From positions 6,782 through 70,781 of the forward strand of contig DATATA010000074.1 of assembly GCA_036263775.1 (NCBI GenBank): DNA of 64,000 bases, written 5' to 3'. Shown here one piece after another: positions 45,555 to 64,000 of this stretch. Every line of letters starts with the position of its first letter. Positions within the stretch are counted from its first letter, which is position 1. The notes beneath the pieces were generated by a model. The model had not been told where the DNA came from. It did not search any database and saw nothing but the letters and a program-made list of their open reading frames with translations. This DNA comes from Steroidobacteraceae bacterium. GTDB lineage: Bacteria > Pseudomonadota > Gammaproteobacteria > Steroidobacterales > Steroidobacteraceae. The translations under genes and the position numbers were made by a program.

Positions 45555-47397
45555 CCCCGAGCCTGCGTCCGTGGAATCGATGCTGCGCTTTGATCCCAAA
45601 GTGTTCGTCGATAGTTTGCCCGGCCGCCCGGGTGTCTATCGGATGCTGGATGGCGAGGGCCAGATTCTTTACGTCGGCAAGGCCCGCAACCTCAAGAGCC
45701 GCGTTGGGTCCTATTTTCAGCCGAGCAATGTTCAGCCGAAGGTCCAGGCGCTGGTCGCCAAGACGGCCAATATGGAAGTCACGATCACGAATTCCGATAC
45801 GGAAGCGCTGCTGCTCGAATACAACCTCATCAAGAAGCACCGACCGCGCTTCAACGTGGTGTTGCGCGACGATAAGAGTTTCCCGTACCTGCATCTGGAA
45901 ACTCGGCATGAATTTCCACGCTTGAACTTCTATCGCGGATCACGCAAGGAGCCCGGAAAATATTTCGGGCCCTATCCGTCGGCCGGGGCCGTGCGCGACA
46001 CGCTGCAACAGCTGCAAAAGCTGTTCCGCATCCGCAACTGCGATGATGCGTACTTCGCGAATCGTTCGCGGCCCTGCCTGCAATATCAGATCCAGCGCTG
46101 CACCGCTCCCTGCGTCGGCCTGGTTTCCAAAGAGACCTATGCGCGTGACGTGAGTACGGCCATCAAAGTGCTGGAAGGCCGCAATGACGAAGTCGGCGAA
46201 GATCTGGGCCGGCGAATGGACGCGGCGGCTGCACGATTGGACTTCGAAGAGGCCGCGCGGCTGCGCGACCAGCTTGCCAAACTCAAGGTCATTCAAGCGC
46301 AGCAGATCGTGACCGCAGGGGCCGACCATGACGCCGATGTCATCGCGATTGCCGCCGCGAACGGCGAGTATTGCGTGGCGCTCATGTTCGTGCGCGCCGG
46401 CCGCAGCCTGGGCAGCACGACCTTTTTCCCAAAGGCCCCGTTTGCGGAGCTGCCCGAGGTGCTGGCGGCATTCGTCATGCAATACTACTTGGAGCGCGAC
46501 GCGCCGGCAGAGATCATCGTCGAGCAGGACTTCGACGAAATGCAGTTGCTGGAAACCACGTTGGCCGACCGCCTGTCCCATAAGGTGCGCATCGTCGCGT
46601 CGGTTCGCGGCATCCGCGCGCGATGGCTGGAAATGGTGCACAACAACGCCGAGCAAGCGCTCACCATGCGGCGCCTGGCGCGCGCGGGAATTGAATCCAG
46701 CTTGGAGGACCTGCGCGAGGCTTTCGACCTGGAGGAATCGCCGGGTCGGCTGGAGTGCTTCGACATCAGCCATACGGGCGGCACGGACACGGTCGCCTCG
46801 TGCGTCGTGTTCGGCGTCGAGGGGCCGCTGAAGAGCGATTATCGGCGCTTTAATATCAGCGGAATCCAGCCGGGTGACGATTACGCGGCCATGTACCAGG
46901 CGTTGACGCGGCGCTACAAGCGGGTGCGCGACGGCGAGATCGTGAAGCCAGACGTGCTGCTGATCGACGGCGGCAAGGGACAGCGGGCGGAGGCGGCCAA
47001 GGTTCTCGAAGAGCTGGGAATAGGGGGCATAACGCTGATCGGCGTCGCCAAAGGCGCTGACCGGCGTGCCGGGCAGGAACAGCTGTTCTTGTTGGGCCAG
47101 GACACGCCCACTATACTGCCGCCGGACTCACGTGCATTGCACTTGATTCAACGCGTGCGCGACGAAGCGCATCGATTTGCGATCGCAGGACACCGGCGAA
47201 AACGCGCCAAACGGCATAGTCAGTCGATCCTGGAAACCATCCCGGGGTTGGGACCGGTCAAACGGCGCGAGCTGCTGAAGCAATTCGGCGGCCTTCAAGG
47301 GATACTGCGTGCCGGCATCGATGATTTCGTACAAATTCGCGGCCTCGGGCGCGAACTCGCTCAGGTGATCTATGAACACCTCCATCCCGGACGCTAA
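45547..47397 (+). CDS. uvrC: Excinuclease ABC subunit C
   Basis: GIY-YIG (PGVYRMLD...ILYVGKARNLKSRV), UVR domain (FEEAARLRDQL), and a C-terminal HhH. The ATG at 45547 overlaps the upstream gene end. Confidence 0.92.
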   Translation: MNSPEPASVESMLRFDPKVFVDSLPGRPGVYRMLDGEGQILYVGKARNLKSRVGSYFQPSNVQPKVQALVAKTANMEVTITNSDTEALLLEYNLIKKHRPRFNVVLRDDKSFPYLHLETRHEFPRLNFYRGSRKEPGKYFGPYPSAGAVRDTLQQLQKLFRIRNCDDAYFANRSRPCLQYQIQRCTAPCVGLVSKETYARDVSTAIKVLEGRNDEVGEDLGRRMDAAAARLDFEEAARLRDQLAKLKVIQAQQIVTAGADHDADVIAIAAANGEYCVALMFVRAGRSLGSTTFFPKAPFAELPEVLAAFVMQYYLERDAPAEIIVEQDFDEMQLLETTLADRLSHKVRIVASVRGIRARWLEMVHNNAEQALTMRRLARAGIESSLEDLREAFDLEESPGRLECFDISHTGGTDTVASCVVFGVEGPLKSDYRRFNISGIQPGDDYAAMYQALTRRYKRVRDGEIVKPDVLLIDGGKGQRAEAAKVLEELGIGGITLIGVAKGADRRAGQEQLFLLGQDTPTILPPDSRALHLIQRVRDEAHRFAIAGHRRKRAKRHSQSILETIPGLGPVKRRELLKQFGGLQGILRAGIDDFVQIRGLGRELAQVIYEHLHPGR

Positions 47398-47971
47398 ACC
47401 CAAATCTCACCTGAATCTGCCGAACACGCTGACGTGGTTGCGCATATTGATGATTCCCGGCGTGGCGATTCTGTTCTACCTGCCGTTTTGGTGGGCGCAC
47501 CCCGCGGCCGGCATCGGCTTCGCGCTGGCCGGCATTACCGACACGTTGGACGGCTATTTCGCGCGCAAGCTCGGATTGACCTCCCGCCTCGGAGCGTTTC
47601 TCGATCCCGTCGCAGACAAATTGATCGTGGCCGCCGCGCTGGTGCTGATCGTCAGCGACGACCCGCGCTGGTTTGTCGTGATCATGGCGATCGTCATCAT
47701 CGGCCGTGAAATAGCGGTCTCGGCGCTGCGCGAATGGATGGCCGAAATCGGTGCGCGCGGCCGGATCAAGGTGTCGCAGTTGGCCAAATACAAAACCATC
47801 ATGCAGATAACGGGACTGTCGATGATGTTGTTTCATCATCAGTTGCTCGGCATCGCAATTTATAAGCTCGGCGTGGTGTTGACCGCCGTCGCAGCGGTGC
47901 TCACGCTTTGGTCGATGATTCTTTATTTGCGCCTGGCGTGGCCCGAGCTGCGGGACAGTTCGCGGCTGTAG
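47372..47971 (+). CDS. pgsA: CDP-diacylglycerol--glycerol-3-phosphate 3-phosphatidyltransferase
   Basis: NLPNTLTWLRI and the CDP-alcohol motif DTLDGYFARKLGLTSRLGAFLDPVADK. Downstream of uvrC, as in E. coli. Confidence 0.9.
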   Translation: MNTSIPDAKPKSHLNLPNTLTWLRILMIPGVAILFYLPFWWAHPAAGIGFALAGITDTLDGYFARKLGLTSRLGAFLDPVADKLIVAAALVLIVSDDPRWFVVIMAIVIIGREIAVSALREWMAEIGARGRIKVSQLAKYKTIMQITGLSMMLFHHQLLGIAIYKLGVVLTAVAAVLTLWSMILYLRLAWPELRDSSRL

Positions 47972-48060
47972 CCGCCGCCGGCGCTTCGTGCGCGGCTCGG
48001 CAGCTTCGAGAAAAAGCCGGTGTGTTCAAGGCGTTAGCGGCATCATTCGCCGACTTCTCC

Positions 48061-48088
48061 TTGACTATCAGCGGGACGGCCCTACAAT
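48061..48088 (+). promoter_or_regulatory. Sigma-70 type promoter for tRNA-Gly
   Basis: TTGACT (48061-48066), a 16-nt spacer, then TACAAT (48083-48088), followed by a GC-rich discriminator (TGCGCC) about 18 nt upstream of the tRNA 5' end. Confidence 0.55.
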
Positions 48089-48105
48089 TGCGCCTCTGTT
48101 TAAGG

Positions 48106-48181
48106 GCGGGAATAGCTCAGTTGGTAGAGCGCAACCTTGCCAAGGTTGAGGTCGCGAGTTCGAGCCTCGTTTCCCGCTCCA
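48106..48181 (+). tRNA. tRNA-Gly (anticodon GCC)
   Basis: 76-nt cloverleaf, with acceptor GCGGGAA/TTCCCGC, D-loop AGCTCAGTTGGTAGAGC, anticodon loop CTTGCCAAG, T-arm GCGAGTTCGAGCCTCGT and an encoded CCA. Confidence 0.95.
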
Positions 48182-48193
48182 AATTTTGCGCTG

Positions 48194-48733
48194 CTAAAGC
48201 GTTAGCGCTCCAAGCTCAGTGAGCGCCTGGCGAATGTTTTCCCGGGCGGCACCCTCGTTCGCCAAGCGCAACCGCTCGACTCCCGCGAAAGCCTGCCCGG
48301 CGGTTGCCGTGTGTTCACTATTGATGTCCTTTGTCCACACCGTGCTGCCGGACTTCGTATCTTTCAATGCGTAGCTGACTTCCATCTTTACGGTGAACGA
48401 AAATCCAAATGTCGGCTGGTCCACCTTGCCGATGAACGCCGTCAGCCGATAACGGGCACCGTCCGCCGCCACGCTGCTGAAAAGGCCGGCTTTCTGAATC
48501 GAGTCACGCAGCGCTTGTGCGAAAGCGTCATTCGAGATCTGCGATGCACCCATCTTGGAGGTCTCTTTGCCGCCGGACACCGCGATCGATACGTCCCCGT
48601 CCACCTTATGCACCGGCGCTACGATTTGCGCCACCATCGCATCCGGCTTCGATCCGGACGCGCAGCCGCCGACCAACAACGCCGCCAGGAATAGGGCCGC
48701 AAGCACAGGTTTGTTGTTGATTGCTATTTTCAT
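48194..48733 (-). CDS. Putative lipoprotein, hypothetical
   Basis: Signal peptide with lipobox LLVGGC. No recognised domain. Confidence 0.6.
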   Translation of the reverse strand: MKIAINNKPVLAALFLAALLVGGCASGSKPDAMVAQIVAPVHKVDGDVSIAVSGGKETSKMGASQISNDAFAQALRDSIQKAGLFSSVAADGARYRLTAFIGKVDQPTFGFSFTVKMEVSYALKDTKSGSTVWTKDINSEHTATAGQAFAGVERLRLANEGAARENIRQALTELGALTL

Positions 48734-49149
48734 TTGAGTATCTCCCCGAGGACTTCCTGGACCATGGCTTCCGGTGATTTGCGCTGCAACGACGGACGCA
48801 TTGACTGGGCTCTTGCAATGACTGCGCCGGATTCGCCGTCATGAAGCTGCACATCGAGCTTGATCATGTACATGGTGATGTCCCACATCCAGCGATCCTG
48901 ATAGGTGATGATCGCATCGACGCGGCTTGCCGGTTGCGGCGCTTCGCCGCAACTCGCGCTATAGCCCAAGCCCGTTAAACGGCCGGCGATCAGCTTGTCG
49001 ATGGCATGGTCATCGCCCGCTTCCTGCGCCACGTAGAAGGACTTGAGTCCCTTGATATTCGCGTCGGGCGCTTTGGCCGATTCCAAACTCGCGCAAGCCG
49101 GCAGCAAAAGCGCCATGCAGGCAATGCCAGCCAAGGGGGATCTGTTCAC
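48730..49149 (-). CDS. Putative lipoprotein, hypothetical
   Basis: Lipobox LLPAC. A GTG at 49149 is preceded by AGGGAAG. The ORF is open up to 49215, so the start is uncertain. The stop overlaps the start of the downstream lipoprotein gene. Confidence 0.55.
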   Translation of the reverse strand: MNRSPLAGIACMALLLPACASLESAKAPDANIKGLKSFYVAQEAGDDHAIDKLIAGRLTGLGYSASCGEAPQPASRVDAIITYQDRWMWDITMYMIKLDVQLHDGESGAVIARAQSMRPSLQRKSPEAMVQEVLGEILK

Positions 49150-49325
49150 GGTAACTTCCCTGTTTTCTTGAGTATTTATCCGCGGCGGGAGATTGTACTG
49201 CAACTCGTAGGCCACATGTAGTGGTGTCTACCAGCACGAAGCGGATTGAGTGCCATCGCCTGAGCGGATGAGCTAAACTTGCTGCGGAAACCCCGGCCCG
49301 TCCGGGGTTACTATTTTCGACAATG

Positions 49326-49399
49326 GGCTAAGTGGCAGAGTGGTCATGCAGCGGCCTGCAAAGCCGTCTACGCCGGTTCGATTCCGACCTTAGCCTCCA
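49326..49399 (+). tRNA. tRNA-Cys (anticodon GCA)
   Basis: 74-nt cloverleaf, with acceptor GGCTAAG/CTTAGCC, anticodon loop CTGCAAA, T-loop TTCGATT and an encoded CCA. There is one C-A mismatch in the T-stem. Confidence 0.9.
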
Positions 49400-50769: not shown

Positions 50770-51153
50770 GTGAGAATCGTACTCGGATTGCTGATGGCCT
50801 TGAATGCGGCGCTATTCGTGTTCGGCGCGATACAACACGTCGGCGTCGAAATCGGACCCTTTCACGAGCCTGTGATTGTTCCCGCAGCGATCGTGGAGTC
50901 CGTATGCGCGCTCTCGCTGCTTTGGGGGCTGTGGGCGGTGTTCCGCGGTTCCTCAGGCGTCTGGCGCATCGCCTTCACTGGAAATTTGATCGCGCTCGCC
51001 GGCGTGCTGCTCGGCATCGTGGCGCTCGCGGCCGGCCGAGGGCCGCGCACGCTCAGCAACGACAATCTCCACCGCGCCATGCTCACGCTGATCGGTCTCA
51101 GCTTATTGGCGCTTACCTTGAGCCGATTGCTGCCGGGTTTCGGCAAAAAGTGA
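50770..51153 (+). CDS. Small integral membrane protein, hypothetical
   Basis: Four hydrophobic helices. GTG start. Confidence 0.45.
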   Translation: MRIVLGLLMALNAALFVFGAIQHVGVEIGPFHEPVIVPAAIVESVCALSLLWGLWAVFRGSSGVWRIAFTGNLIALAGVLLGIVALAAGRGPRTLSNDNLHRAMLTLIGLSLLALTLSRLLPGFGKK

Positions 51154-51174
51154 GGGCCTGGGAGAGCTGCAACC

Positions 51175-52269
51175 ATGTCGCAAAACCGCCTTCGCTCACT
51201 GCAGATGTGCGTGATCAGCGCTGCCCTGGCAGTTCCCACGGTAACCCCGGCTCAAGACGCTGCATCCGCACGGCGACCGAAAGTGACGGTCGAGGCCGGC
51301 GGGACGGTCGAAGTACCTGCGCAAACCGTGCCGCTCTCGGTATTTCTTAGCCCCGAAGCCAAAGCGTACGTTGCGCAGCATTTGAAGGACATGCAAGACC
51401 CGGAAGTTCTGCAGCAGGATGCCGGCGTGCCGCGATTCATGAAGGGATATCTTGTCCGTGATCACCAGCGGTTCGCCGTGGCAAAAAGCGACGAGAAAAT
51501 CGGTGGCGTACATGTCTATGACTACACGCCGAAATCGGGAATCTCTGCGAAGAACAAGCATCGGATCCTGATCAATCTCCATGGTGGTGCGTTCAGGGGC
51601 TGCTGGCCGGGTTGCGCGGAACTCGAGTCGCTCCCTATCGCTGCATTGGGGAAAGTTCAAGTCATAAGCGTTGACTATCGCGAGGGTCCGGACAACAGAT
51701 TTCCTGCGGCGAGCGAAGACGTCGCGGCGGTCTATCGGGAACTTCTGAAGACCCACAAGCCCGCAAACATCGGCATCTACGGCTGCTCGGCGGGCGGCTT
51801 GCAGACCGCAATGTCGGTGGCGTGGTTCCAAAAGCATTCTCTTCCCACGCCCGGCGCGATCGGAATTTTTTGCGCCTCGGCAGGCACGGTGGTGGGCGGG
51901 GATGCTCTCTTTACTGCCATGCCCTTCGGTGAAGCTCGCTTGGCTCAGCCGGCCACACCGGGCGCAAAATCACCGCCGGGCTATTTCAGCGGCACGGACC
52001 CGAATGACCCGGTGGTTTCGCCCATCAACTCCGCAACAGTTCTCGCGAAGTTCCCGCCGACGCTGATCATCACGGGAACGCGCGACTTCGAACTGAGCTC
52101 CGCGCTCCATACGCACGAGCAATTGGTGAAGCTCGGCGTAGAAACGGAACTCCATGTCTGGGAAGGTCTCTTTCACGGATTCTTTTACAATGCAGATATT
52201 CCGGAGTCGAACGATGCATTCAATGTGATGATCCGGTTCTTCGATCGTCATTTGGGCCGCGGAGCGTGA
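51175..52269 (+). CDS. Secreted alpha/beta hydrolase (esterase/lipase, hormone-sensitive-lipase-like fold)
   Basis: Signal peptide, oxyanion HGGAF, nucleophile elbow GCSAGG, and late D/H residues (TRDFE...GLFHGF). Confidence 0.8.
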   Translation: MSQNRLRSLQMCVISAALAVPTVTPAQDAASARRPKVTVEAGGTVEVPAQTVPLSVFLSPEAKAYVAQHLKDMQDPEVLQQDAGVPRFMKGYLVRDHQRFAVAKSDEKIGGVHVYDYTPKSGISAKNKHRILINLHGGAFRGCWPGCAELESLPIAALGKVQVISVDYREGPDNRFPAASEDVAAVYRELLKTHKPANIGIYGCSAGGLQTAMSVAWFQKHSLPTPGAIGIFCASAGTVVGGDALFTAMPFGEARLAQPATPGAKSPPGYFSGTDPNDPVVSPINSATVLAKFPPTLIITGTRDFELSSALHTHEQLVKLGVETELHVWEGLFHGFFYNADIPESNDAFNVMIRFFDRHLGRGA

Positions 52270-52397
52270 CCGCTGCGGAAGCCGTCGTTTGGAAGAGGGC
52301 ACCGGCTACCCGGCCTGCCCATGCCAAGACGGGGGGGCGATTTTCGACCTGGGTCTCCACATTTCAATGCGCTGCTGCGAACAGGTAGAATCCCGCC

Positions 52398-53501
52398 ATG
52401 TCCGAAGACGTCTCGAACCTAGCGACCCTGCGATCGTCAATCCCGGTTGACGCCGTGGATCTGCGCCGCATCGGCGCGCACCCGGACCAGTGGTACCCTC
52501 TTGCATGGGCGGATGAGCTCAAGCCCGGCAAGACCTTAGGCCGGCGCTTCGCCGGCGAGCCCATCGTCCTGTACCGCGGCAACAGCGGCAAAGTGTTCGC
52601 CTTGGAGGATCGCTGCGCGCATCGTCAAGTACCCTTGCATCTGGGCGTGGTGAGCGGCGACGACCTGAAGTGCCACTATCATGGCTGGGTCTATAACTGC
52701 AGCGGCAAGTGCGTCAATGTGCCCTATCTGGGCCCCGAGCGCTTGCCCACCGGCGTGAGAAGCTATCCTGCGCGCGAGATCGACGGCTTGATTTTTGTTT
52801 TTCCCGGCGATGCCGCGCTCGCCGAAAGCCGAGTGCCGGCAACTCTGGGTTCATCGCGGCGCAAGGATTATAAAACTCGCCGGTTAAACCGCGAGGTTGC
52901 GTGTCATTACACTTTCATGCATGAAAATTTGTTCGACATGAACCATCAATTCATGCACCGCAAACAGATGGGCTCGATACGCGCCCGCTGCTTGGGACGC
53001 AATCACGGCGAGAACTGGGCTGAAGTGGAATACAGCTTCAGCCGCACCGAGGGAAAATCATCCGTTGGCGAGCAAGTCATCGTCGACCTCATGCGTAAGC
53101 GCGGCGAGGCCAAGAAGGATTTTTCCGACCACATGCGCATTCGCACCGACTACCCGACCCAAAGTCTCAAGGTCTGGGTTGGACGCGACATCAAGCAATC
53201 GGACGCACCGGTTCTCGATGTCTGGTTGGGCTACACGCCTCTGGATGCGGAGCAGCGTACCAATCGAACCTATGGGTATCTGTCGGTGAAGAAGCCGAGT
53301 TTTCCCGGAGTCATCCACCTGGTCTGGCCGTTCGTGACTTGGTTCACCGAGAACATTTTCCGCGAGGACAAAGAGATCGTGGAATACGAGCAGAAAGCCT
53401 ACGACCTACAAGGGGCGGATTGGAACAATGAAGTCTTTCCTCCTATCCGCGATCTGCGCGGCGTGCTGGCACGCTGTGGTGTGCCGATGAAACCCGGCTA
53501 G
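52398..53501 (+). CDS. Rieske [2Fe-2S] non-heme iron oxygenase (alpha-subunit type)
   Basis: Rieske motif CAHRQVPL-x16-CHYHGW and a downstream mononuclear iron region (ENLFDMNHQFMH). Confidence 0.8.
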   Translation: MSEDVSNLATLRSSIPVDAVDLRRIGAHPDQWYPLAWADELKPGKTLGRRFAGEPIVLYRGNSGKVFALEDRCAHRQVPLHLGVVSGDDLKCHYHGWVYNCSGKCVNVPYLGPERLPTGVRSYPAREIDGLIFVFPGDAALAESRVPATLGSSRRKDYKTRRLNREVACHYTFMHENLFDMNHQFMHRKQMGSIRARCLGRNHGENWAEVEYSFSRTEGKSSVGEQVIVDLMRKRGEAKKDFSDHMRIRTDYPTQSLKVWVGRDIKQSDAPVLDVWLGYTPLDAEQRTNRTYGYLSVKKPSFPGVIHLVWPFVTWFTENIFREDKEIVEYEQKAYDLQGADWNNEVFPPIRDLRGVLARCGVPMKPG

Positions 53502-53584
53502 GCGGCCGGCGCCCTACGCGCGCGATATTTCACTTTGATGACCGAGGCTGATCTGACGTAAAATACGTCGTAAGTGATGTTGCC

Positions 53585-54253
53585 ATGCTAAATCCACTGC
53601 CATTGCCCCAAACCGCGGCCGCTGAGCGACCGTGGGATGCCCGCCTGGCGCGGCGTTTGGTGGCGCCGCTCATTCACACCCGGGTGACGCCCAATCATCT
53701 GACCACGCTGCGTTTGGCGGTCGGCCTGGCGGCTGCCGCCGCCTTCATACCGGGGCGTTACGCGTGGTCCAATTTGGCTGCGCTGCTGTTGGTAGTGTCG
53801 AATTTTCTGGATCACACCGACGGCGAATTGGCGCGCATGAGCGGCAAGACCAGCCGCATCGGGCATATCTACGATTTAGCCAGCGACGCCGTGGTGACGA
53901 TTTTGCTGTTCATCGCGATCGGCATTGGCGTCGGCGCGCGGTCCGGAGGCGAGGCGAGCTTTCCGCCGGCAGTTTTGGGGCTGGTGGCCGGCGTGGCAGT
54001 CGCACTCATTTTTTATCTGCGCATGCGCATCGAAGAACTGCTCGGCAAGTCCGCGACGCAACAGGCCTCCCTCGGCGGGTTCGAGACCGAGGACGTGCTG
54101 TATTTATTTCCCTTGGCGACGCTCAGTAATGCGCTGATGCCCACGCTGCTTGCGGCAGCAATCTGCGCCCCGCTGTTCGCCGTTTGGGTGATCATCGACT
54201 ATCAACGGTTGCTGCGCCGAGATCGCCGCATGGCTGCTGGGGTCGCCGGATAA
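53585..54253 (+). CDS. CDP-alcohol phosphatidyltransferase family membrane protein
   Basis: Perfect DxxDGxxARx8GxxxDxxxD motif (DHTDGELARMSGKTSRIGHIYDLASD). Multi-TM protein. Confidence 0.85.
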   Translation: MLNPLPLPQTAAAERPWDARLARRLVAPLIHTRVTPNHLTTLRLAVGLAAAAAFIPGRYAWSNLAALLLVVSNFLDHTDGELARMSGKTSRIGHIYDLASDAVVTILLFIAIGIGVGARSGGEASFPPAVLGLVAGVAVALIFYLRMRIEELLGKSATQQASLGGFETEDVLYLFPLATLSNALMPTLLAAAICAPLFAVWVIIDYQRLLRRDRRMAAGVAG

Positions 54254-54255
54254 GC

Positions 54256-55002
54256 GTGGCGGCGACCGCAACCGGAGGCGAGCCGGTCTTAACCTCACGA
54301 TTGGATTCCCTCGATTTGCAGGCCTTGCGCCGCGAATACGCCGCGCAAGGTTGCTTCCTCTATGTCGAAGATTTCTTGCCGCCGCAGCTTACGGCACAAT
54401 TGATCGAGGCGGTTGCCGCCGTAAACGGCGCGGTCAATCGCAATTACCTGCCCGGACATAAACAGGGGGGCAGCGTCAGCCGTCACGTCATCGACAAGCA
54501 GGCGCCGATCATCTCCGAGCTGTACCGGTCGGTTGCGTTGAGACGGTGGCTTGATGAGCTTACAGACGAGCATCTAGAGCTCTCTCCGGCCGACGACCCG
54601 CATGGCTACGCATTTTATTTCTACACGCGCGCGGGAGATCACATCGGCTGGCACTACGACACCTCGTACTATGCCGGCCGGCGCTATACATTGCTGTTCG
54701 GTGTGGTCGACGACTCCTCGTGCACGCTGGACTATCAGCTGCACACGCGCAAGCGGGGTGCAAAGGTGGACTCCGGTTCCATCCGGATCCCGCCGGGCGG
54801 CTTGGTGGTCTTTGATGGCGATGCATTGCGGCATCGAATCAGCCCCTCGCGCGAAGGTGAAACCCGCGTTTCTTTGACCTTCGAGTACGTGACCGATCCG
54901 CGCATGCATCCCGGATGGCGCATCATTTCCAATATGAAGGATGCCTTTGCCTATTTCGGCTTCCGGCAGGTGTTCCATCGCCTATTGGGCCGCGGCGAAT
55001 GA
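54256..55002 (+). CDS. 2-oxoglutarate/Fe(II)-dependent oxygenase-like protein
   Basis: HxD (GWHYDTS) and a distal His (LRHRISP) followed by RVSLTFEY, arranged as in 2OG oxygenases. The GTG start at 54256 is uncertain. Confidence 0.55.
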   Translation: MAATATGGEPVLTSRLDSLDLQALRREYAAQGCFLYVEDFLPPQLTAQLIEAVAAVNGAVNRNYLPGHKQGGSVSRHVIDKQAPIISELYRSVALRRWLDELTDEHLELSPADDPHGYAFYFYTRAGDHIGWHYDTSYYAGRRYTLLFGVVDDSSCTLDYQLHTRKRGAKVDSGSIRIPPGGLVVFDGDALRHRISPSREGETRVSLTFEYVTDPRMHPGWRIISNMKDAFAYFGFRQVFHRLLGRGE

Positions 55003-55991
55003 CCAAGACGGCGAGCTGGCTGCTGAGCATCGGCGTGCTTTTGTTCGTCGCCGTGCTGGTTTCGCAAGATTTGCCCGCCATCGTCGCGACGCTGGCTCAC
55101 GCGGGCTGGGGTCTGTTGTTGGTGGCTGCTTTTCATTTATTGCCGCTGTGGCTCGATGCTGCGGCAATTGGCGTGCTTTTCGAGCCTGGTTCGAGCCGCA
55201 GCCCTGTAAAAGACTCGCTGCTGGCGCGTTGGGTGGGCGAATCCGCCAATAGTCTGATGCCGGCCGGACAACTAGGCGGTACGGTGCTCATGGCGCGCTA
55301 TCTGGCGCGCCACGGATTGCCGACGGAGGATGCGGCCGCGGCCATTACCGTCAGCACGACCTTGCAGACTTTTGCACAAATCGCCTTCGCGCTGCTCGGC
55401 GTCGTCGTGCTGGGGACGCAAACCAGGCATTTCTCGCCTGCGGCGCTGCGAACCGCCGCGCTGGTTGCGAGCGCCTTTTTGGCCGTCCAGGTGGGCGGCT
55501 TTTACCTGATTCAGAGGCGGGGTCTTTTCAGCAAGCTGATGATGGCCGTGAGACGATTCTCGCGCAAGCGCGATTGGTCGCAATGGGTCGCCCAGGCGCA
55601 GGCCATTGATCTCGCCGTGCAGAGTACCTACCGGCGCAACGGACCCGTGACGGCAAGTTTTTTGCTCAGCTTGATCGGCTGGATGGTAGGCACGGGCGAG
55701 GTGTATTTGATCGCCGCCTTGCTGGGCACGCCGGTCGGTTGGCGCGATGCATTCGTGCTCGAAAGCCTGGGCCAGGCTATTCGCGGTGCTGGATTCGCAA
55801 TACCCGGCGCGCTGGGCGTGCAAGAGGGCGGCTATTTGTTGCTCGGCCCCTTGGCAGGTCTCGGGCCCGATGCGGCCTTGGCCTTGTCGCTGGCGAAGCG
55901 CGCGCGCGAATTGTTGTTGGGTTTGCCCGGATTGCTGTATTTGCGGTTTGTCCGCGATGATCCCGCCGCCGCCGGCGCCGCCCCTCCTTGA
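54999..55991 (+). CDS. Lysylphosphatidylglycerol-synthase TM-region / flippase-like membrane protein (UPF0104 family)
   Basis: Roughly eight TM helices with the family-typical (G)ESANSLMPAGQLGG and P.G.GVQEG segments. ATGA overlap with the upstream gene. Confidence 0.65.
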   Translation: MTKTASWLLSIGVLLFVAVLVSQDLPAIVATLAHAGWGLLLVAAFHLLPLWLDAAAIGVLFEPGSSRSPVKDSLLARWVGESANSLMPAGQLGGTVLMARYLARHGLPTEDAAAAITVSTTLQTFAQIAFALLGVVVLGTQTRHFSPAALRTAALVASAFLAVQVGGFYLIQRRGLFSKLMMAVRRFSRKRDWSQWVAQAQAIDLAVQSTYRRNGPVTASFLLSLIGWMVGTGEVYLIAALLGTPVGWRDAFVLESLGQAIRGAGFAIPGALGVQEGGYLLLGPLAGLGPDAALALSLAKRARELLLGLPGLLYLRFVRDDPAAAGAAPP

Positions 55992-56027
55992 GTTAATATC
56001 TCTGACGCTTGATATGGAAGGATTTTG

Positions 56028-56795
56028 ATGCGCGCGATTATTCTGGCGGCTGGGCGAGGTATTCGTCTGCAACTACCCGAGGACAGCCAGCTACCGAAGT
56101 GTTTGCTGCGCTTCGACGGGATGACGCTGCTCGAGCGGCATTTACGTATGCTAAAGAGCGCCGGCATCACCGATGTGGTCTTGGCGCTGGGCTTTCGGCA
56201 CGAACTCGTGGAGGCCGAACTCGATCGCTTGGCGTGGGCGCCACGCCCGCAAATCGTGCTCAACACGAGTTTCGAGCTCGGCAGCGTGCTGACCGTGCAG
56301 ACGGTGGCTCGAGCCATGACCGGCGGCGGCGAAGTCTTGCTGATGGATGCAGACGTATTGTACGACGAGCGCATCTTAACAGCGTTGGTGTCCGGGAGCC
56401 GTCCGGTAAACCGTCTGCTGATCGACCGCGATTTCGAGGCCGGCGACGAACCCGTCAAACTCTGCGTGCAAGGCGGAGTGCCGATCGAGCTGCGCAAGCA
56501 GTTGGCGGCCGATTTAAAATTCGACACGATCGGCGAGTCGGTCGGGTTTTTTCGCTTCGACCAGCCTGGGGCGAAGCGCCTGGCGGAATTGGTCGCAGGC
56601 TACGTCGATACGGGACGTGCCCACATGCCGCATGAAGAAGCGGTGCGCGATTTCTTGAGAGAGAGAAGCCAGGTGCTGGAAGTCGCCGACGTAACGGGAT
56701 TTCCGTGGATTGAAATTGATTTTCCAAATGATGTTGTGCGCGCGACCCAGGAAGTGTTGCCGCAACTTCAGCCGTTATCCAGAGGTGGCCAATGA
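56028..56795 (+). CDS. LicC-like nucleotidyltransferase (cytidylyltransferase family)
   Basis: N-terminal [12 protein letters not shown]...PKCLL nucleotide-binding motif. About 255 aa. Confidence 0.75.
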
Positions 56796-58489
56796 ATGCA
56801 ACGACTCGCCCCGCCGCGGGGTCCGCTTATCAAAAGAGCGCCAAGGGCAGTGCTCCGACGCGCTCCGCCAAGCTGCGCCAGATGCTGCACAGCGCGGATT
56901 TGGAGTTTCTGATGGAGGCCCACAACGGTCTCTCGGCGCGCATCGTGCGCGAGGCCGGCTTCAAGGGCATTTGGGCGTCGGGGCTGACCATATCTGCGCA
57001 GTTCGGCGTGCGCGACAACAACGAGGCGAGCTGGACCCAGGTCGTTGATATGTTGGAGTTCATGGCGGATGCCGGCGACTTGCCAATATTGCTCGACGGC
57101 GACACCGGGTACGGCAATTTCAACAATATGCGCCGTCTGGTGCGCAAACTCGAGCAGCGCGGGATCGCCGGCGTCTGCATCGAGGACAAGCAATTTCCAA
57201 AAACGAACAGCTTCTTGAACGGCGAGCGGCAGCCGCTGGCCGACATCGAGGAGTTCGTGGGCAAGATCGCTGCCGGAAAGGACACCCAGCAGGACGCCAA
57301 TTTCTCGATTGTGGCCCGGGTCGAGGCGCTGATCGCCGGCTGGGGCATGGACGAGGCTTTGCGCCGCGCGGAAGCCTACCGGCTCGCCGGTGCCGACGCG
57401 ATTCTCATTCATAGCAAGCTATCGAAGCCGGATGAGATCGTAACCTTCGCCAAGGAATGGGCTCGGCGCGCACCGTTGGTCATAGTGCCGACCCGTTACT
57501 ACAGCACGCCAACGGATGTGTTTCGCCAGGCCGGCATCAGCACCGTCATTTGGGCCAATCATCTGGTGCGTGCGGCCGCTTCGGCAATGCAGAGCATCGC
57601 CAAGGAGATATTCGAGAGCCAGACGCTGGTGAATGTCGAGGACCGCATCGTCTCGGTCAATGAGATCTTTCGTCTGCAGGACGCGGAGGAATACTCGGCG
57701 GCGGAGCGGATTTATCTGTCGAACGGCGGCTCGCCGCGGGCAGCAGTGGTATTGGCTGCGAGCCGCGGCAGAGGGCTGGAGGCAATTACCGAGGATCGTC
57801 CCAAGGTGATGCTGCCCATAGCGGGCAAGCCGCTGCTGCGCTGGTTGGTCGATGGCTTTAAAAAAGAAAACATCAACGATATTACCGTGGTGGGCGGGTA
57901 CCGCGCCGATGCGATCGATACGGCCGGAATCAAACTCGTGGTCAACCAGCGCTACGCCGAGACCGGCGAATTGACGTCGCTGGCGTGCGCCGTCGAATCC
58001 CTCGACTCGGACGCGGTCATTGCCTACGGCGATTTGTTGTTTCGCAGCTATGTGCTGCGGGACCTCGTGGAGTCCAAGGCGGATTTTGCCGTCATCGTCG
58101 ATTCGCTCATGACCGGCGACAGCAATCTTACCGTGCGCGACTATGCATACTGCTCCCGTAGCGACGACCGCGGACTGTTCGGCACGCCGGTACTGCTCGA
58201 GCGAGTCACGAGTGCGGCCGACCTTGAACGCACGCCCCACGGCAGATGGGTCGGTATGCTGGGTGTCAGCCGCGCGGGCCTGAGCAAGATCAAAGCGATG
58301 ATCGCGACGCTGCGCGCCGAGCCCCGCTTCGATGAATTGGATCTGCCCGCGCTGCTCAATGCCTTGGTCGCCGCCGGCTCGGCCGTAGAGGTTGTGTACG
58401 TTCATGGCCACTGGCGCGGCGTCAATGATTTGGAAGATTTGAGACAGGCCGTGGACTTTGCCCACGCCCAGGCCCCCTTCGATCGATGA
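56792..58489 (+). CDS. Phosphoenolpyruvate mutase fused to a C-terminal nucleotidyltransferase domain
   Basis: PepM hallmarks ([35 protein letters not shown]). The C-terminal ~230 aa carry [12 protein letters not shown]...[17 protein letters not shown] overlap at the start. Confidence 0.9.
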
Positions 58490-59697
58490 TCGAGGCGCGG
58501 CATTTCGTCGAGGCTGCGCGCGCACGCGGATTTTACTGGTATGCCGGCGTACCGTGTTCCTTCCTTACGCCCTTCATCAACTACGTGCTTCAGGATCCCG
58601 CTCTGCATTATGTCTCTGCGGCAAACGAGGGCGATGCGGTGGCGTTGATTGCCGGCGTGGCGCTCGGCGGTACAGGCGCGGCGCTCGGCGGTGGGGCGGG
58701 CGCGGCTCACGGCCGCGGCATTGCGATGATGCAGAATTCCGGATTGGGCAATGCGGTAAGCCCCTTGACTTCGTTGACCTGGACCTTCCGCTTGCCGCAA
58801 CTGCTGATCGTCACGTGGCGCGCTCAACCCGGCATTGCCGATGAACCGCAGCACGCCTTGATGGGCCCGATTACGCCCACCATGCTCGAGACCATGCAGA
58901 TACCGTGGGAGTTGTTTCCCACGGACACGGCGCAGATCGACGCCGCCCTGGATCGCGCAACGGCGCATATGGAGCAAACCGGCCGGCCGTACGCGCTGGT
59001 GATGCAAAAGGGCAGTGTGGCTTCCTATCCGTTAAAGGTGGGGGTCGGGGCGATATCGAGCCGCTCGGCGGCGGCGAGCGCGGTGCACGCAACTCGCGGC
59101 GTGGCCGCCGACATGAGGCCGACTCGCGAGGAGGCGCTGCGTCTGGTGGTGGCGCGCACCTCGCCGGAGTCGACGGTGCTCCTGGCATCCACCGGTTTTT
59201 GCGGACGCGAACTGTACGCGATACAGGATCGCGCCAATCATCTTTATATGGTCGGTTCGATGGGATGCGTGCTGCCGCTGGCTCTTGGACTTGCATTGGC
59301 CCGTCCCGATTTGCGCGTGCTCGCATTGGACGGCGACGGCGCTGCGCTCATGCGCCTCGGCGCATTCGCGACTGCCGGAGTGTACGGTCCCGGTAACTTG
59401 TGGCACCTTCTGCTCGACAATGGCGCGCACGATTCCACCGGAGGCCAAGCAACGGTTTCGCCTCGAATCGGCTTCGCCGAAGTGGCGGCAGGGTGCCGCT
59501 ATGCCTCCGCGTTCGAGACCGATGACCTTGAGCGGATTGCGACCTGGTTGGACCAACCGCCGCTCGATGGCGCGCGCTTTGCCAGGCTGCTTATCCGCCC
59601 GGGGACGCGCAGCGACCTGCCCCGTCCCTCCGCTACGCCCGTCGAGGTGAAGACGCGTTTAATGCAGCACATCGGCGCGCCGGGTAGGGCACGCTAG
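58486..59697 (+). CDS. Phosphonopyruvate decarboxylase (TPP-dependent)
   Basis: TPP motif [12 protein letters not shown]...[14 protein letters not shown] and an N-terminal GVPCSFL pyrimidine-binding domain. ATGA overlap with pepM. Confidence 0.88.
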
Positions 59698-60773
59698 TGC
59701 TGCTGTTGAATCCGGGGCCGGTCACCTTGAGCGATCGCGTCAGGCGCAGCCTGCTGCAGCCGGATCTATGCCACCGCGAAAGCGAATTCTTCGATCTACA
59801 GGATGAGGCACGCAGCGGCTTGCTGGCCGCCTATGACTTGGATCCGGCACGGTGGTCTGCGGTGCTCATGACTGCTTCCGGCACCGCAGCGGTCGAGAGC
59901 ATGGTTGCGGCATTGGTTCCGCAAGGCGGCCGGCTGCTCGTGGTGGAGAACGGAACCTACGGCGAACGAATTTCGCGCATCTGCGCGCAATATGGAATTG
60001 CTCACGAGCGCATCGTCGGCGATTGGATGCGGGCGCCTGATTATGCCGCGGTGGGGGCAAGGCTTTCATCTCAGCCTAAGAGCGCGCGCTTTACACATGT
60101 TGCCGTCGTCCACCACGAAACCACAACCGGCCGACTGAACGATCTTGGCGAGTTGCTCGCGCTATGCCGCGAGCACGATGCGGACTTGCTGGTCGACGGC
60201 GTGAGCAGCTTCGGCGCCGAGTCGATCGACTTCGGAAATCCCGCGCTCGTTGCCGTCGCGGCCACGGCCAACAAATGCCTGCATGGCGTGCCGGGGGCCG
60301 CTTTTGTGATCGTACGGCGCAGCGAGCTGCCGAATGCGGTAAGCCGCACGTACTACTTGGATCTGACGCGGCTGGCGCGCCTCCAGGCTGAGCGCAATAC
60401 CCCCTTCACGCCGGCGGTGCATGCCTACTACGCGCTGGTCGAAGCCTTGCGCGAGTATGCCGAGCAGGGAGGGCGGGGCGCTCGTTTTCAGCGCTACGCA
60501 CAGCTGGCCGAGCGTGTCCGGGCGGGGCTCGCCGGCTTGGGTATCCAATCTGCCATACCGCCGCAGGAATCCTCCGTGGTCCTGCGCGCCTATTCGCTGC
60601 CGGCCGACATCGCTTACCCGGAATTGCACGATAGGCTGAAGGCCGATGGGTTCGTCATCTACGCGGGGCAGGGCAATTTATCCAAGAACCTGTTCCGAAT
60701 CTCGACGATGGGGGAATTAACCGCGGCGGACATCGATCGTCTGCTGGATTCCTTCTCGCGGCTGCCGCGATGA
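59697..60773 (+). CDS. 2-aminoethylphosphonate:pyruvate aminotransferase-like (class V aminotransferase)
   Basis: LLNPGP N-terminus and the PLP-lysine motif TANKCLHGVPGAAFV, as in PhnW. GTG start abutting the upstream stop. Confidence 0.85.
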   Translation: MLLLNPGPVTLSDRVRRSLLQPDLCHRESEFFDLQDEARSGLLAAYDLDPARWSAVLMTASGTAAVESMVAALVPQGGRLLVVENGTYGERISRICAQYGIAHERIVGDWMRAPDYAAVGARLSSQPKSARFTHVAVVHHETTTGRLNDLGELLALCREHDADLLVDGVSSFGAESIDFGNPALVAVAATANKCLHGVPGAAFVIVRRSELPNAVSRTYYLDLTRLARLQAERNTPFTPAVHAYYALVEALREYAEQGGRGARFQRYAQLAERVRAGLAGLGIQSAIPPQESSVVLRAYSLPADIAYPELHDRLKADGFVIYAGQGNLSKNLFRISTMGELTAADIDRLLDSFSRLPR

Positions 60774-62068
60774 AGGTTTTCGCCGTTGCTTCAGCCGCAA
60801 CGGTGATGGCCCTGGCCACTCCTTGTTGGGCGCAGATCCCCCCCGGCGATCCGGGAGTCCAAGCGCCCCCGGGTCCCGTTACGGTGCCGCCCCCGGCGGC
60901 TACTCCAGGATGGACCAAGTGGTTCAATCCCGCGACGGCACCGTTCATTCCGGTGCCTGAGATTGCGCAAGACCCGGACAGCGGCTTGACCCTCGGCTTG
61001 ATCCCGACCTGGGTGAAGACCGATGAAAATCGCAACGTCCGGCGCATCATCGCGCCGGACCTAATTTACAACCCGAACTTTGGTATCGGCATGCACGCGC
61101 GCATGTACGAATATGCATCTCGCGACGAGCAGTGGTCCATCGTGACGGGCATCAAGCAGCGGGTGGAGCGCGAGTTTGATGCGGAGTATCAAATCGGCCG
61201 CTTACGGGAGGACCGCTGGTCGATCAACTACAGTTTGGTGTATGACCGAGATGGTACGACGCGCTTTTACGGCATCGGCAATCAAACGCGGTCCGGCGCG
61301 CAGACCAACTACGTCGACCAGCAGGAGTACGGACAAGTACAAGTCGGCCTCAATTTCAACCATACCTGGCAGCTGCTCTACACCGTACGCCTGCGGGGAG
61401 TGGATGTGCAGCGGGGCGCGTTGGACGATGTGCCTTCAATTGAAACTCGATTCCAGGGGCTGCTGGGCACCGACAAGGAACTGCTTAACCGTCTGTCCCT
61501 GGTCTACGACACCCGCGATGACCTGACCGTGCCCTCACGCGGCATGAAGTGGGTTTTATATGTCGGCGCCTCGGCCAAGAACGGCTTGCTGAACGATTCC
61601 TCGTACAGCGAAGCGGGAATCGACGGCCGCGGCCTGTGGCCCGTCGCCCCGGATACGGTGCTCGCCGCACACATGTCGCTGCGTTACCTGCCGACCGTCA
61701 ATGACATACCGTTTTGGGCCTTGAGCAGCATCGGCGGGGGCCAGAGCGTGATCGGCGGCGAACAGCCGCTTCGCGGCTTCGGCCAGGGACGATTTTACGA
61801 TCGAGATTCCTTCTCCTCCACCATCGAGCTTCGGCACAAGGTCATCTCGTTCGACGCCGTGACGACACTGCTCGACATCGAAGTGGCTCCCTTCGCCGAC
61901 TTCGGACGTGTTTTTTCCCAATCCGGCACCAATCCCCTCAGCCACGTGCACCAAGTGTATGGAGTGGGCTTTCGCGGTATTGCGCGGCCGTTCGTCGTGG
62001 GGTACGTCGACATCGGCTACGGCAGCGAAGGCGCTGCGGTATTCACGGGCTTGAATTATCCTTTCTAG
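60770..62068 (+). CDS. Omp85/BamA-family outer-membrane beta-barrel (bacterial surface antigen domain), no evident POTRA domains
   Basis: Signal peptide, loop-6 type PLRGFGQGRF motif, alternating beta-strand pattern, and a C-terminal ...FTGLNYPF. ATGA overlap with the transaminase gene. Confidence 0.7.
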   Translation: MKVFAVASAATVMALATPCWAQIPPGDPGVQAPPGPVTVPPPAATPGWTKWFNPATAPFIPVPEIAQDPDSGLTLGLIPTWVKTDENRNVRRIIAPDLIYNPNFGIGMHARMYEYASRDEQWSIVTGIKQRVEREFDAEYQIGRLREDRWSINYSLVYDRDGTTRFYGIGNQTRSGAQTNYVDQQEYGQVQVGLNFNHTWQLLYTVRLRGVDVQRGALDDVPSIETRFQGLLGTDKELLNRLSLVYDTRDDLTVPSRGMKWVLYVGASAKNGLLNDSSYSEAGIDGRGLWPVAPDTVLAAHMSLRYLPTVNDIPFWALSSIGGGQSVIGGEQPLRGFGQGRFYDRDSFSSTIELRHKVISFDAVTTLLDIEVAPFADFGRVFSQSGTNPLSHVHQVYGVGFRGIARPFVVGYVDIGYGSEGAAVFTGLNYPF

Positions 62069-62186
62069 GAGTGGCCGTGACCTTGGGCTGTTCCGGATGC
62101 TCCTCGACGATTTCGTACCAAATCGCGTTCAGCACTGCAAAGGAAAGCGCAAGACCGGTGCCGAGAATCCAGCTGAAGTACCACAT
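62043..62186 (-). CDS. cydX: Cytochrome bd oxidase small subunit CydX-like (47 aa)
   Basis: Hand translation gives [47 protein letters not shown]. The N-terminus closely resembles E. coli CydX (MWYFAWILGT...). The start overlaps the cydB stop (TGATG). It is below the size cutoff of the ORF track. Confidence 0.75.
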   Translation of the reverse strand: MWYFSWILGTGLALSFAVLNAIWYEIVEEHPEQPKVTATPRKDNSSP

Positions 62187-63331
62187 CAGTAACGCCCCTC
62201 ATGGTCGTGCATGTTCTCAAGAGTAATTTGGCCTCGAAGTATCCTGAACACCCATCCGGTGTAGGCCAGAATGATGGGCAAGAACACGATCACGGCGGCG
62301 AGCATTATGAATAACGTCTTGGCGCTGCTGGAAGCATCCCACACGGTCAGGCTCTGGTCGGGGAATGTGGAGGAAGGCAGCAAAAACGGGAACAGCGCAA
62401 ATCCTCCCGTCAATACCGTGCCAGCTTGAACGAACACGCTGGCCAGGAACGCGGCGCCGCCATGCTGCAGGCGCAGCAGCACATAGGCGCTCAGCGCGCC
62501 CAACACCGCCGCGGCTGGTGCGGCCCACATCCAGGGCCACGCGCGGTAGTTGTTGAGCCAGGCGCCCGCGATGATGGCGACGTGCTTGTGCATGGGATCG
62601 GACGGTGCGGCGTGATTGACGGTGCCGGTGACTTGGTATCCGCCAAGCGTCGAGCAAATCCAGAAACCCGCGCAGAGAAACGCGACAAGATACACGCATG
62701 CAGCCACGCGGCCGGCCTGGCGCGCGCGCCCCGCCATCGGTTCGCCGACTTTCAATGCGGCGTACGCGTTGCCGTGCAGCACCAGCATGGAAAGGCTGAT
62801 GAGACCGCCGAGCAGCGCGAAGGGATGCAGCAAACTGAAAAGGCTGCCGCCGACGATGGGACGCTGCAGGCTGTCGAAATGAAATGGCAAGCCGAGAAAA
62901 AGATTTGCGAACGCCACGCCGAACAGCAGGCTGGGTAGGGCGCCGCCCAGGGTCAGCGCTGCATCCCATGCCGTGCGCCATCGGCCGTCCGTCAATTTGT
63001 CGCGATACGTGAAACCAACGGGGCGCAAAATCAATGCCAGGAGCACCAAGAACATGGCCAGATACAGGCCCGAAAAGGAGGTCGCGTACAGAAGCGGCCA
63101 CGCGGCAAAAGCCGACCCGCCGCCCAGCACGAACCAGACCTGGTTGCCTTCCCAAACCGGTTCGACCGATGAGAGCAGCGCGCGGCGTTCCGCATCGGTT
63201 CGACCGAGAAAGGTAAAGCTGGCGCCCAGCCCCAGGTCGAACCCGTCCATGATTGCGAATCCCGCGAGCAGCACGCCCAGAATCAGCCACCAGATCACGC
63301 GCAATGTCGCATAGTCGCGCAGCGTGTTCAT
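62186..63331 (-). CDS. cydB: Cytochrome bd ubiquinol oxidase subunit II
   Basis: Polytopic membrane protein with the typical CydB N-terminus (L..IWW.ILGVLL.GFAI.DGFDLG). It lies between cydA and cydX. Confidence 0.9.
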
Positions 63332-64000
63332 GTCGAATAGCCCAGGCCGTCGGGCCCGCGCCTGATCGTGCGCACCAAGAGAAAAGCGTCCACCGCTGCC
63401 AACACCGAATAGAAGACAACGAAGCCGGCGAGGGACAGCCAGACATTCCCCGCCGAAGTGCGCGACACGCCCAGGAATGTGGGCAGCACGCCGTCCACGG
63501 CCCAGGGCTGGCGGCCGTACTCCGCGACGATCCAGCCTATCTCGATCGCGATCCAGGGCAAGGGCAGGCTGAAAAAGGCGATCTTGAGAAACCAGGGGTG
63601 CCGCTCAAAGCGGTGGCGGCTCGCGAGATAAAACGCGGCGGCGAACAGTGCGATAAAAAATAAGCCCAGTCCCACCATGAGCCTGAAGCACCAAAACAGC
63701 ACGGGAACGTTCGGGACGGTCGACCAGGCGGCCGCGTCGATCTGCGCGGGCGTCGCGGCCGCGGGATTGTCGGTAAAGCGCAGCAGCAACAGTGCGTAGC
63801 CTAGGTCGGCCTGATTGGCTTCAAATCGTTGCAAAACGCCGGCATCCGGCGGATCCGCGGAGGCGCGCAGCAGCTGCAGCGCCGAGTAGGCTTCGATTCC
63901 TGCGACGATGCGTGCGCGTGCCCGGGCCACGAGATCGTCAATACCCAAGACCGGCTGATCGATCGACCGCGTAGCGATGAGACCCAACAGCCACGGGATT
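63328..64000 (-). CDS. cydA: Cytochrome bd ubiquinol oxidase subunit I; only the C-terminal part is in the window
   Basis: C-terminal CydA motifs ([12 protein letters not shown], ...[12 protein letters not shown]). The frame is open to the window edge. Confidence 0.88.

Follow-up and report, generated by a model that had tools for sequence, protein, structure and literature searches.

It is thought that about half of the bacterial phosphonate gene clusters decorate cell surfaces. Among the neighbourhoods of ppm, the gene of phosphoenolpyruvate (PEP) mutase (Ppm), the "Burkholderiales_CDP-OH" families are the largest single group and account for 36% of those collected in one RefSeq survey (Li & Horsman 2022, PMC8942020). 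That article equates them with the phosphonolipid clusters called Group 1 in Yu et al. 2013. Their product, predicted mainly in Burkholderia, would be a lipid with a head group of 1-hydroxy-2-aminoethylphosphonate (HAEP, the 1-hydroxy form of 2-aminoethylphosphonate, AEP), and no such lipid had been characterised as of 2022 (PMC8942020). The same gene set is described in a lichen Nostoc, for which the drawn pathway ends with cytidine monophosphate (CMP)-activated HAEP and diacyl- or alkylacyl-glycerol (PMC5987646, Fig. 7 and supporting information); this source cites Yu et al. 2013. CMP-AEP is made by PntC enzymes (Rice et al. 2019, PMC6697681; PDB 6pd1/6pd2), the LicC relatives of which use phosphocholine (PMC6697681), and HAEP is reported on a sphingolipid in Bacteriovorax (PMC8942020). 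The present analysis concerns a stretch of 64,000 nucleotides (nt; hereafter the window) from a Steroidobacteraceae bacterium (assembly GCA_036263775.1, contig DATATA010000074.1, positions 6,782 to 70,781), in which an earlier note, made from the letters only, had proposed a candidate phosphonolipid gene cluster at 52398-62068.

Seven genes of this cluster (53585-60773) stand in an order identical to that in Mycetohabitans rhizoxinica pBRH01 and Burkholderia cenocepacia, with a protein identity of 50-77%; both the order and the identities were checked in the reference loci L081 and L082. In M. rhizoxinica pBRH01 the annotations read CDP-alcohol phosphotransferase (CDPOH; CDP, cytidine diphosphate), 2-oxoglutarate (2OG) oxygenase, LPG-synthase-domain protein, "phosphocholine cytidylyltransferase family protein", aepX (fused), aepY and AEP aminotransferase (AEPT). 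Judged by sequence and gene order, the seven-gene core of the window is a "Burkholderiales_CDP-OH" or Group 1 phosphonolipid cluster, a member of a known but uncharacterised family in a new host lineage. The nearest proteins and loci belong to Steroidobacteraceae genomes assembled from soil metagenomes. The locus brings no new chemistry; what is new here is that the region is modular, being composed of a four-gene cassette, an AEP block and a backbone of Rieske and Omp85 genes, and that an Omp85 barrel lacking POTRA domains recurs beside the cassette. The gene dxs, which serves isoprenoid precursor synthesis, lies directly 3' of the M. rhizoxinica cluster (17371-19275 of L081), and this may be a coincidence.

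The preferred reading, to which a probability of roughly 60% can be given, is that the product of the cluster is a lipid with a carbon-phosphorus bond (C-P lipid), made by a route of the Kennedy (CDP-ethanolamine) type. It is carried by Ppm, phosphonopyruvate decarboxylase (Ppd), AEPT and an HpnL-like membrane protein all scoring above curated cut-offs, by a perfect CDP-alcohol signature motif, by the co-occurrence of the core genes in 78-80 of 80 loci and by coupled gene junctions. The earlier note had proposed a route of synthesis, activation, transfer and flipping; it is the best-supported one and equals the published prediction (PMC8942020; PMC5987646), and a prediction it remains. The accompanying remark that such a route lacks experimental definition agrees with the 2022 statement (PMC8942020), no later characterisation having been met in the literature searched.

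All nine open reading frames (ORFs) of 52398-62068 were located on the + strand at the coordinates given earlier, and every domain call made for them was upheld with Pfam and NCBIfam, namely the three enzymes of the AEP pathway, two LicC-type nucleotidyltransferase modules (one stand-alone, one fused to Ppm), a CDP-alcohol transferase with an intact signature, an MprF-type flippase-like membrane protein, two oxygenases (a Rieske/VanA_C type and a HalD type) and a POTRA-less Omp85 barrel. The junctions are as tight as had been described: ATGA overlaps occur at 54999, 56792, 58486 and 60770, a TAGTG overlap at 59697 and a gap of 2 nt at 54253/54256, with some 36 nt ahead of the PntC gene and 83 nt from the Rieske gene to the CDPOH gene. 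The refined starts are GTG at 54256 for the 2OG oxygenase and ATG at 54999 for the HpnL-like protein (both the most likely choices) and ATG at 56028 for PntC.

The proposed route would start from PEP, which Ppm, Ppd and AEPT, by their equivalog-level family membership, are expected to turn into AEP. Ppm (56792..58489; TIGR02320, 399 bits against a cut-off of 320) has the EDKxxxxxNS motif at residues 131-140 and is fused to the second LicC-like module (NTP_transf_3, PF12804, residues 318-436). It is followed consecutively, with overlapping start and stop codons, by Ppd (58486..59697; TIGR03297, 421 bits against 312) and AEPT (59697..60773; TIGR03301, 382 bits against 361). The Fe(II)/2OG oxygenase of HalD/BesD type (54256..55002; PF23169, 44 bits against a cut-off of 26) would then hydroxylate AEP at position 1 and give 1-hydroxy-AEP. 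Its residues H157-x-D159...H217 are kept in 79 of 80, and the HxD form marks a hydroxylase type; a comparison with the PDB by sequence returned no significant match, and one with Pfam no match to PhyH. This enzyme had been recognised in the earlier note and left there without a role. The literature and a locus variant (L160) indicate alpha-hydroxylation, and the variant supports phosphonate alpha-hydroxylation as its putative task because the oxygenase slot is filled there by a member of another oxygenase family, a PhnY*-like protein.

Activation to CMP-(hydroxy)AEP would be the task of the stand-alone LicC/PntC-type cytidylyltransferase (56028..56795; NTP_transf_3), as characterised PntC relatives suggest. 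Its best PDB match is 6pd1, the PntC domain of Tde1415, which it follows over the full length at a weak E value of 6.5e-8. Residue E104 of the Tde protein is aligned with Asp, as in LicC; the signature LAAGRGIRL is canonical (LAAGxGxRL), the DAD motif is also conserved, and the protein matches as well the IPCT half of the IPCT/DIPPS model. The module fused to Ppm finds its best PDB match in LicC (1jyk) and has a non-canonical signature, LAA[S/G/T]RGxGLE (residues 321-330, 57752-57781), with Gly where Arg is usual. All 51 Ppm-fusion homologues keep this variant, and the catalytic status or the substrate of the fused module may differ from that of stand-alone PntC.

The CDPOH enzyme (53585..54253, 222 aa; PF01066, 54 bits) is the proposed head-group transferase. 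Following Kennedy-type logic, it would move the phosphonyl head group from CMP onto a membrane alcohol, most likely diacylglycerol, to yield a phosphono analogue of phosphatidylethanolamine. Its signature D76x2D79G80x2A83R84x8G93x3D97x3D101 is invariant in 83 homologues. When its profile was compared with the PDB, users of soluble CDP-alcohols came on top (AF2299 2.4e-9, CEPT1 5.4e-7, IPCT/DIPPS 9.4e-7, CHPT1 6e-6) and users of CDP-diacylglycerol (CDP-DAG) ranked lower (PIS/PIPS at 7.5e-3 or above, PgsA 0.15, PssA 0.6), a ranking that speaks, if weakly, for the Kennedy-type direction and against a route from CDP-DAG. The window has a housekeeping pgsA elsewhere (47372-47971; TIGR00560, 157 bits), and the cluster CDPOH would therefore be a second, specialised PF01066 enzyme. 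Finally, the polytopic membrane protein of HpnL / MprF-flippase type (LPG_synthase_TM; 54999..55991; PF03706 6e-27; TIGR03476, 313 bits against a cut-off of 196), which also exceeds the cut-off of the TIGR00374 flippase-like domain, may, to judge by its family, flip the lipid to the outer leaflet of the inner membrane. Which lipid receives the head group, whether hydroxylation precedes activation, and what the second nucleotidyltransferase, the HpnL-like protein and Omp85 each do are matters of inference.

The recurrence of the gene set was followed in a collection of species-representative genomes, where a scan with the transferase gave at least 546 stretches with a relative, from which 80 loci were kept; a second survey, anchored on Omp85, gave 111 classifiable loci. 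The core of CDPOH, 2OG oxygenase, HpnL-like protein and PntC is found in 78-80 of the 80 species-level loci, so the arrangement is not due to chance. Counted by gene, PntC is present in 80 loci, those lacking ppm included, the oxygenase together with CDPOH in 79, the HpnL-like protein in 78, the Ppm fusion in 51, Ppd in 50 and AEPT in 44. Among the 111 loci, 61 have the cassette and AEP genes, 35 the cassette only, 13 no cassette and two a variant cassette. In 16 genomes Omp85 follows directly 3' of PntC, with cassette genes that are mostly intact and stray stop codons in three loci. Four Paraburkholderia/Burkholderia species hold the four-gene cassette alone; in L072, the one checked, an MFS gene comes next. 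Partial states are seen too: Ppm and Ppd without AEPT (L009, L019, L025, L043, L044), Ppd only (L030), AEPT only (L027), and CDPOH, PntC and Omp85 only (L037). These partial AEP blocks and cassettes may have arisen by stepwise decay or may depend on enzymes encoded at other sites.

A tree of the three core proteins shows loci with ppm interleaved with those without, which points to repeated loss or gain, and the states of the loci are again interleaved in the Omp85-anchored survey. Because of this interleaving, the stable functional unit is the cassette of CDPOH, oxygenase, HpnL-like protein and PntC, with Ppm, Ppd and AEPT as an optional add-on supplying AEP in cis. A search for alignment columns separating loci with ppm from those without found none, the largest frequency difference being 0.48. 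The variant L160 (5276-11167; also seen in L162) has the order uvrC, pgsA, PhyH oxygenase, HpnL-like protein, CDP-alcohol transferase, PntC, Rieske and Omp85, and is devoid of ppm. The identity is 37% for its transferase and 78% for its PntC, and its PhyH protein scores best with the model of the phosphonate hydroxylase PhnY* (169 bits, below the cut-off of 500). As a PhnY*-like homologue fills the oxygenase slot in a variant without ppm, it is suggested that cassettes without an adjacent ppm still act on a phosphonate that comes from another source; a split pathway has been described in Chlorogloeopsis (PMC5987646).

Several points weigh against the C-P lipid reading. The top named-family hidden Markov model (HMM) matches of CDPOH are synthases accepting inositol phosphate (all far below their cut-offs), and the flippase activity ascribed to HpnL-type proteins is an annotation. 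Two nucleotidyltransferase modules, of which the Ppm-fused one has the non-canonical signature, are one more than the reading accounts for. Intact cassettes without Ppm, Ppd and AEPT within 10 kb occur in 24 of 76 genome loci and 35 of 111 overall, and a non-phosphonate substrate is thus possible. The literature searched yields no product report for any member of the cluster family and nothing newer than the 2022 statement; a 2026 preprint on Burkholderia "flavophos" makes no mention of lipids or AEP. One rival explanation reverses the polarity of the transfer, with CDP-DAG as donor and the hydroxyl group of 1-hydroxy-AEP as acceptor, to give a phosphatidyl-HAEP that resembles phosphatidylserine and has a free phosphonate. 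Most bacterial PF01066 enzymes do use CDP-DAG, the best named HMM matches of CDPOH (AIPS, PIPS, PgsA) accept a phosphorylated alcohol, and hydroxylation that creates the acceptor group would explain why oxygenase and CDPOH are paired in 79 of 80 loci. It would, however, leave idle the PntC enzyme present in 80 of 80, CDP-DAG users rank well below CDP-alcohol users in the profile comparison, and none of the named HMM matches comes near its cut-off, so that such a polarity is considered unlikely. The same chemistry on another acceptor (a hopanoid polyol, a ceramide, an ornithine- or glyco-lipid, or a lipid-linked envelope precursor) is likewise held to have only a small chance. It could draw on a membrane protein that passes the HpnL model, the family being named for hopanoid loci, on the HAEP-bearing sphingolipid of Bacteriovorax (PMC8942020), on the distantly SdmA-like (sterol demethylase) Rieske protein next to the cassette and on dxs 3' of the Mycetohabitans cluster. 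Against it, among the solved enzymes whose lipid acceptor is known, the closest, CEPT1 and CHPT1, use diacylglycerol, and the flanks that were scanned (L072, L082, L160 and 42-64 kb of the window, which was not scanned exhaustively as a whole) showed neither hopanoid nor sphingolipid genes; since hopanoid genes are missing from these flanks, the idea of a hopanoid acceptor is a minor rival.

It might also be argued that the cassette is not specific for phosphonates at all and handles an ordinary phospho-alcohol such as phosphoethanolamine or phosphocholine, with AEP as an alternative where ppm is present. About one third of the loci keep an intact cassette without Ppm, Ppd and AEPT, no alignment column splits the loci with ppm from those without, and phosphocholine is the substrate of LicC relatives (PMC6697681). 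Phosphoethanolamine hydroxylated on either carbon would, by chemical inference, be unstable, and yet the loci without ppm retain the oxygenase, which the variant cassette replaces by a homologue of a phosphonate hydroxylase; moreover, the partial remnants (Ppm with Ppd, Ppd only, AEPT only) fit a decaying supply in cis, and a split pathway is on record for Chlorogloeopsis. An unspecific cassette is accordingly regarded as improbable. The product could, lastly, be soluble if the CDP-alcohol transferase joined two small molecules as IPCT/DIPPS does, making a phosphonate solute or a secreted metabolite. This would suit the presence of IPCT/DIPPS and AF2299 among the closest solved relatives of CDPOH and the match of stand-alone PntC to the IPCT half of that model. 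The flippase-like protein in 78 of 80 loci and the outer-membrane barrel linked to the cassette speak for a membrane product instead, and the exporter and tailoring enzymes typical of small-molecule phosphonates are missing, which makes a soluble product very improbable.

The limits of the operon in the window can be approached from the spacer between the Rieske and CDPOH genes. A promoter-like site, TTGATG-18-TAAAAT (53535..53569, + strand, together with the palindrome described below), is the sole + strand sigma-70-like match in 51000-63500, and the motif is kept in the close relatives L001, L003, L004 and L012. A perfect palindrome, GACGTAaaaTACGTC (53555-53569), overlaps its -10-like hexamer 5' of CDPOH and is kept in close relatives as well; it has one copy in the window and zero occurrences in shuffled sequences, and may be considered a candidate operator site. 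The conservation of both elements in this spacer suggests that the operon begins at CDPOH. The spacers 3' of Rieske in cassette-less loci could not be aligned with this region of the window. At the other end, the operon probably takes in Omp85 as its last co-transcribed gene.

The Rieske [2Fe-2S] / VanA_C-type monooxygenase, an oxygenase subunit (52398..53501; Pfam Rieske 3.8e-24, VanA_C 6.3e-13), had been counted in the earlier note as a member of the cluster, and this part of the claim is probably wrong. It is present in 49 of the 80 loci, confined to one Steroidobacterales clade, and found in none of the Burkholderiaceae or of a deep Steroidobacterales clade; because of this restriction, of the promoter-bearing 83-nt spacer and of its persistence beside Omp85 without the cassette, it is probably a conserved upstream neighbour with a transcription unit of its own, outside the operon. 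Among NCBIfam models an SdmA-like one comes nearest, though its 143 bits fall far short of the cut-off of 600, so a distant likeness to SdmA-type sterol demethylases is only a lead, and its PDB neighbours are DdmC, CarAa, SxtT and KshA.

The POTRA-less Omp85-family outer-membrane barrel, the last gene of the run (60770..62068; PF01103 at residues 132-391, 59 bits), has 432 aa, which include a signal peptide and a Pro-rich linker and so offer no space for POTRA domains, none of which were matched; all its homologues have about 430 aa and match PF01103 only. An AlphaFold2 model is poor (pLDDT, predicted local distance difference test, 42; alignment of 27 sequences) and is all-beta from residue 72 at low confidence. 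Omp85 occurs in 64 of the 80 cassette loci, where it may lie downstream, upstream or divergently, and it is also linked to the cassette in two metagenome-assembled genomes of Betaproteobacteria; for these reasons its linkage to the cassette exceeds a simple inherited gene order. It is missing from the loci of cultured Burkholderiaceae and retained without the cassette in 13 of the 111 loci. What had been called a dedicated outer-membrane component is thus linked to the cassette and at the same time independent of it: the linkage stands, and a dedicated role is no more than a proposal. Omp85 may have a part in bringing the lipid into the outer membrane. In 12 of the 13 cassette-less loci a Rieske gene lies within reach of Omp85, mostly directly upstream, as in L084 (7821-10269, followed by cydX, cydB and cydA), L118, L128, L137, L143, L145, L150, L152, L157 and L163. 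The two genes are a conserved pair flanking the cassette and appear to form the stable backbone of the site.

On its 5' side the cluster is preceded by uvrC, the housekeeping pgsA, tRNA-Gly, tRNA-Cys and genes of MarR, SDR and esterase proteins, and on its 3' side cydB and cydA converge on it. The order uvrC, pgsA, tRNA-Gly, tRNA-Cys occupies 45517-49399; two lipoprotein-like ORFs on the - strand lie between the tRNA genes (48194-49215) and have no Pfam match, and the MarR, SDR and esterase genes 3' of tRNA-Cys are not kept in related loci. Far from the cluster, an aconitase gene (22457-26602, - strand) encodes 1381 aa with an intein-like insert of 484 aa at 23639-25090. The insert splits the conserved Fe-S ligand motif (GYGCTT/C...VHN/CIGNSGPL, the slashes marking its borders), starts with Cys and ends in His-Asn followed by Cys, and contains two LAGLIDADG-like motifs.

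What the locus does show is that the family is abundant in uncultured soil Steroidobacteraceae; in the species-representative collection, at least 546 stretches hold a transferase relative. Retention of the cassette after loss of the AEP genes implies that AEP is supplied from elsewhere or that the substrate range is broader. This retention and the recurrent linkage to a POTRA-less Omp85 are points that can be tested in culturable Burkholderia or Mycetohabitans. A bolder and rather doubtful proposal is that the four-gene cassette is a self-sufficient plug-in which converts AEP, whether made by ppm genes in cis, made by ppm genes elsewhere or taken from soil, into an envelope phosphonolipid, with the Omp85 of Steroidobacterales handling that lipid and the Rieske protein acting in the same process. 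If true, it would provide the first functional clue for the POTRA-less class of Omp85 proteins.

Compared with known systems, the barrel of the window matches the 16-strand domain PF01103 of the Omp85 superfamily (BamA/TamA/TpsB) without the N-terminal POTRA part. The membrane protein exceeds the cut-offs for PF03706 and TIGR03476, as expected of MprF and HpnL, but it differs from MprF in having no synthase domain and from HpnL in having no hopanoid genes in the flanks examined. PhnY* of the PhyH family resembles the oxygenase in its proposed conversion of AEP to 1-hydroxy-AEP, and a PhnY*-like protein occupies the oxygenase slot of L160, whereas the window enzyme belongs to another 2OG family, the HalD/BesD-like PF23169. 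IPCT/DIPPS and AF2299 (PDB 4mnd, 4o6m) share with the cluster the combination of a nucleotidyltransferase and a small CDP-alcohol phosphotransferase of the six-helix type taking a soluble CDP-alcohol; in the window the two genes are separate rather than fused, the neighbours are phosphonate and not inositol genes, and the product would be a lipid. PntC systems likewise have LicC-like NTP_transf_3 enzymes beside Ppm or fused to it, and the stand-alone enzyme matches Tde-PntC over its whole length, though weakly (E 6.5e-8), with Asp at the position of Tde E104 and a shifted Arg in the Ppm-fused signature.

With the Kennedy pathway the locus shares the proposed logic, the transfer of a cytidylyl-activated head group to diacylglycerol by a PF01066 enzyme, CEPT1 and CHPT1 being among the best PDB matches, but the kinship is very remote (E about 1e-6, confined to the N-terminal half), the window enzyme is bacterial with some 220 aa, and activation is of the LicC/PntC type. 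The eukaryotic enzymes also accept AEP. From the "Burkholderiales_CDP-OH" clusters the window departs in its gammaproteobacterial host, in the flanking Rieske and Omp85 genes, both missing from the Burkholderia and Mycetohabitans loci examined, and in belonging to a lineage where the AEP block, and even the entire cassette, is often missing; in contrast to these differences, it shares with them all seven genes, their order and a protein identity of 50-77%.

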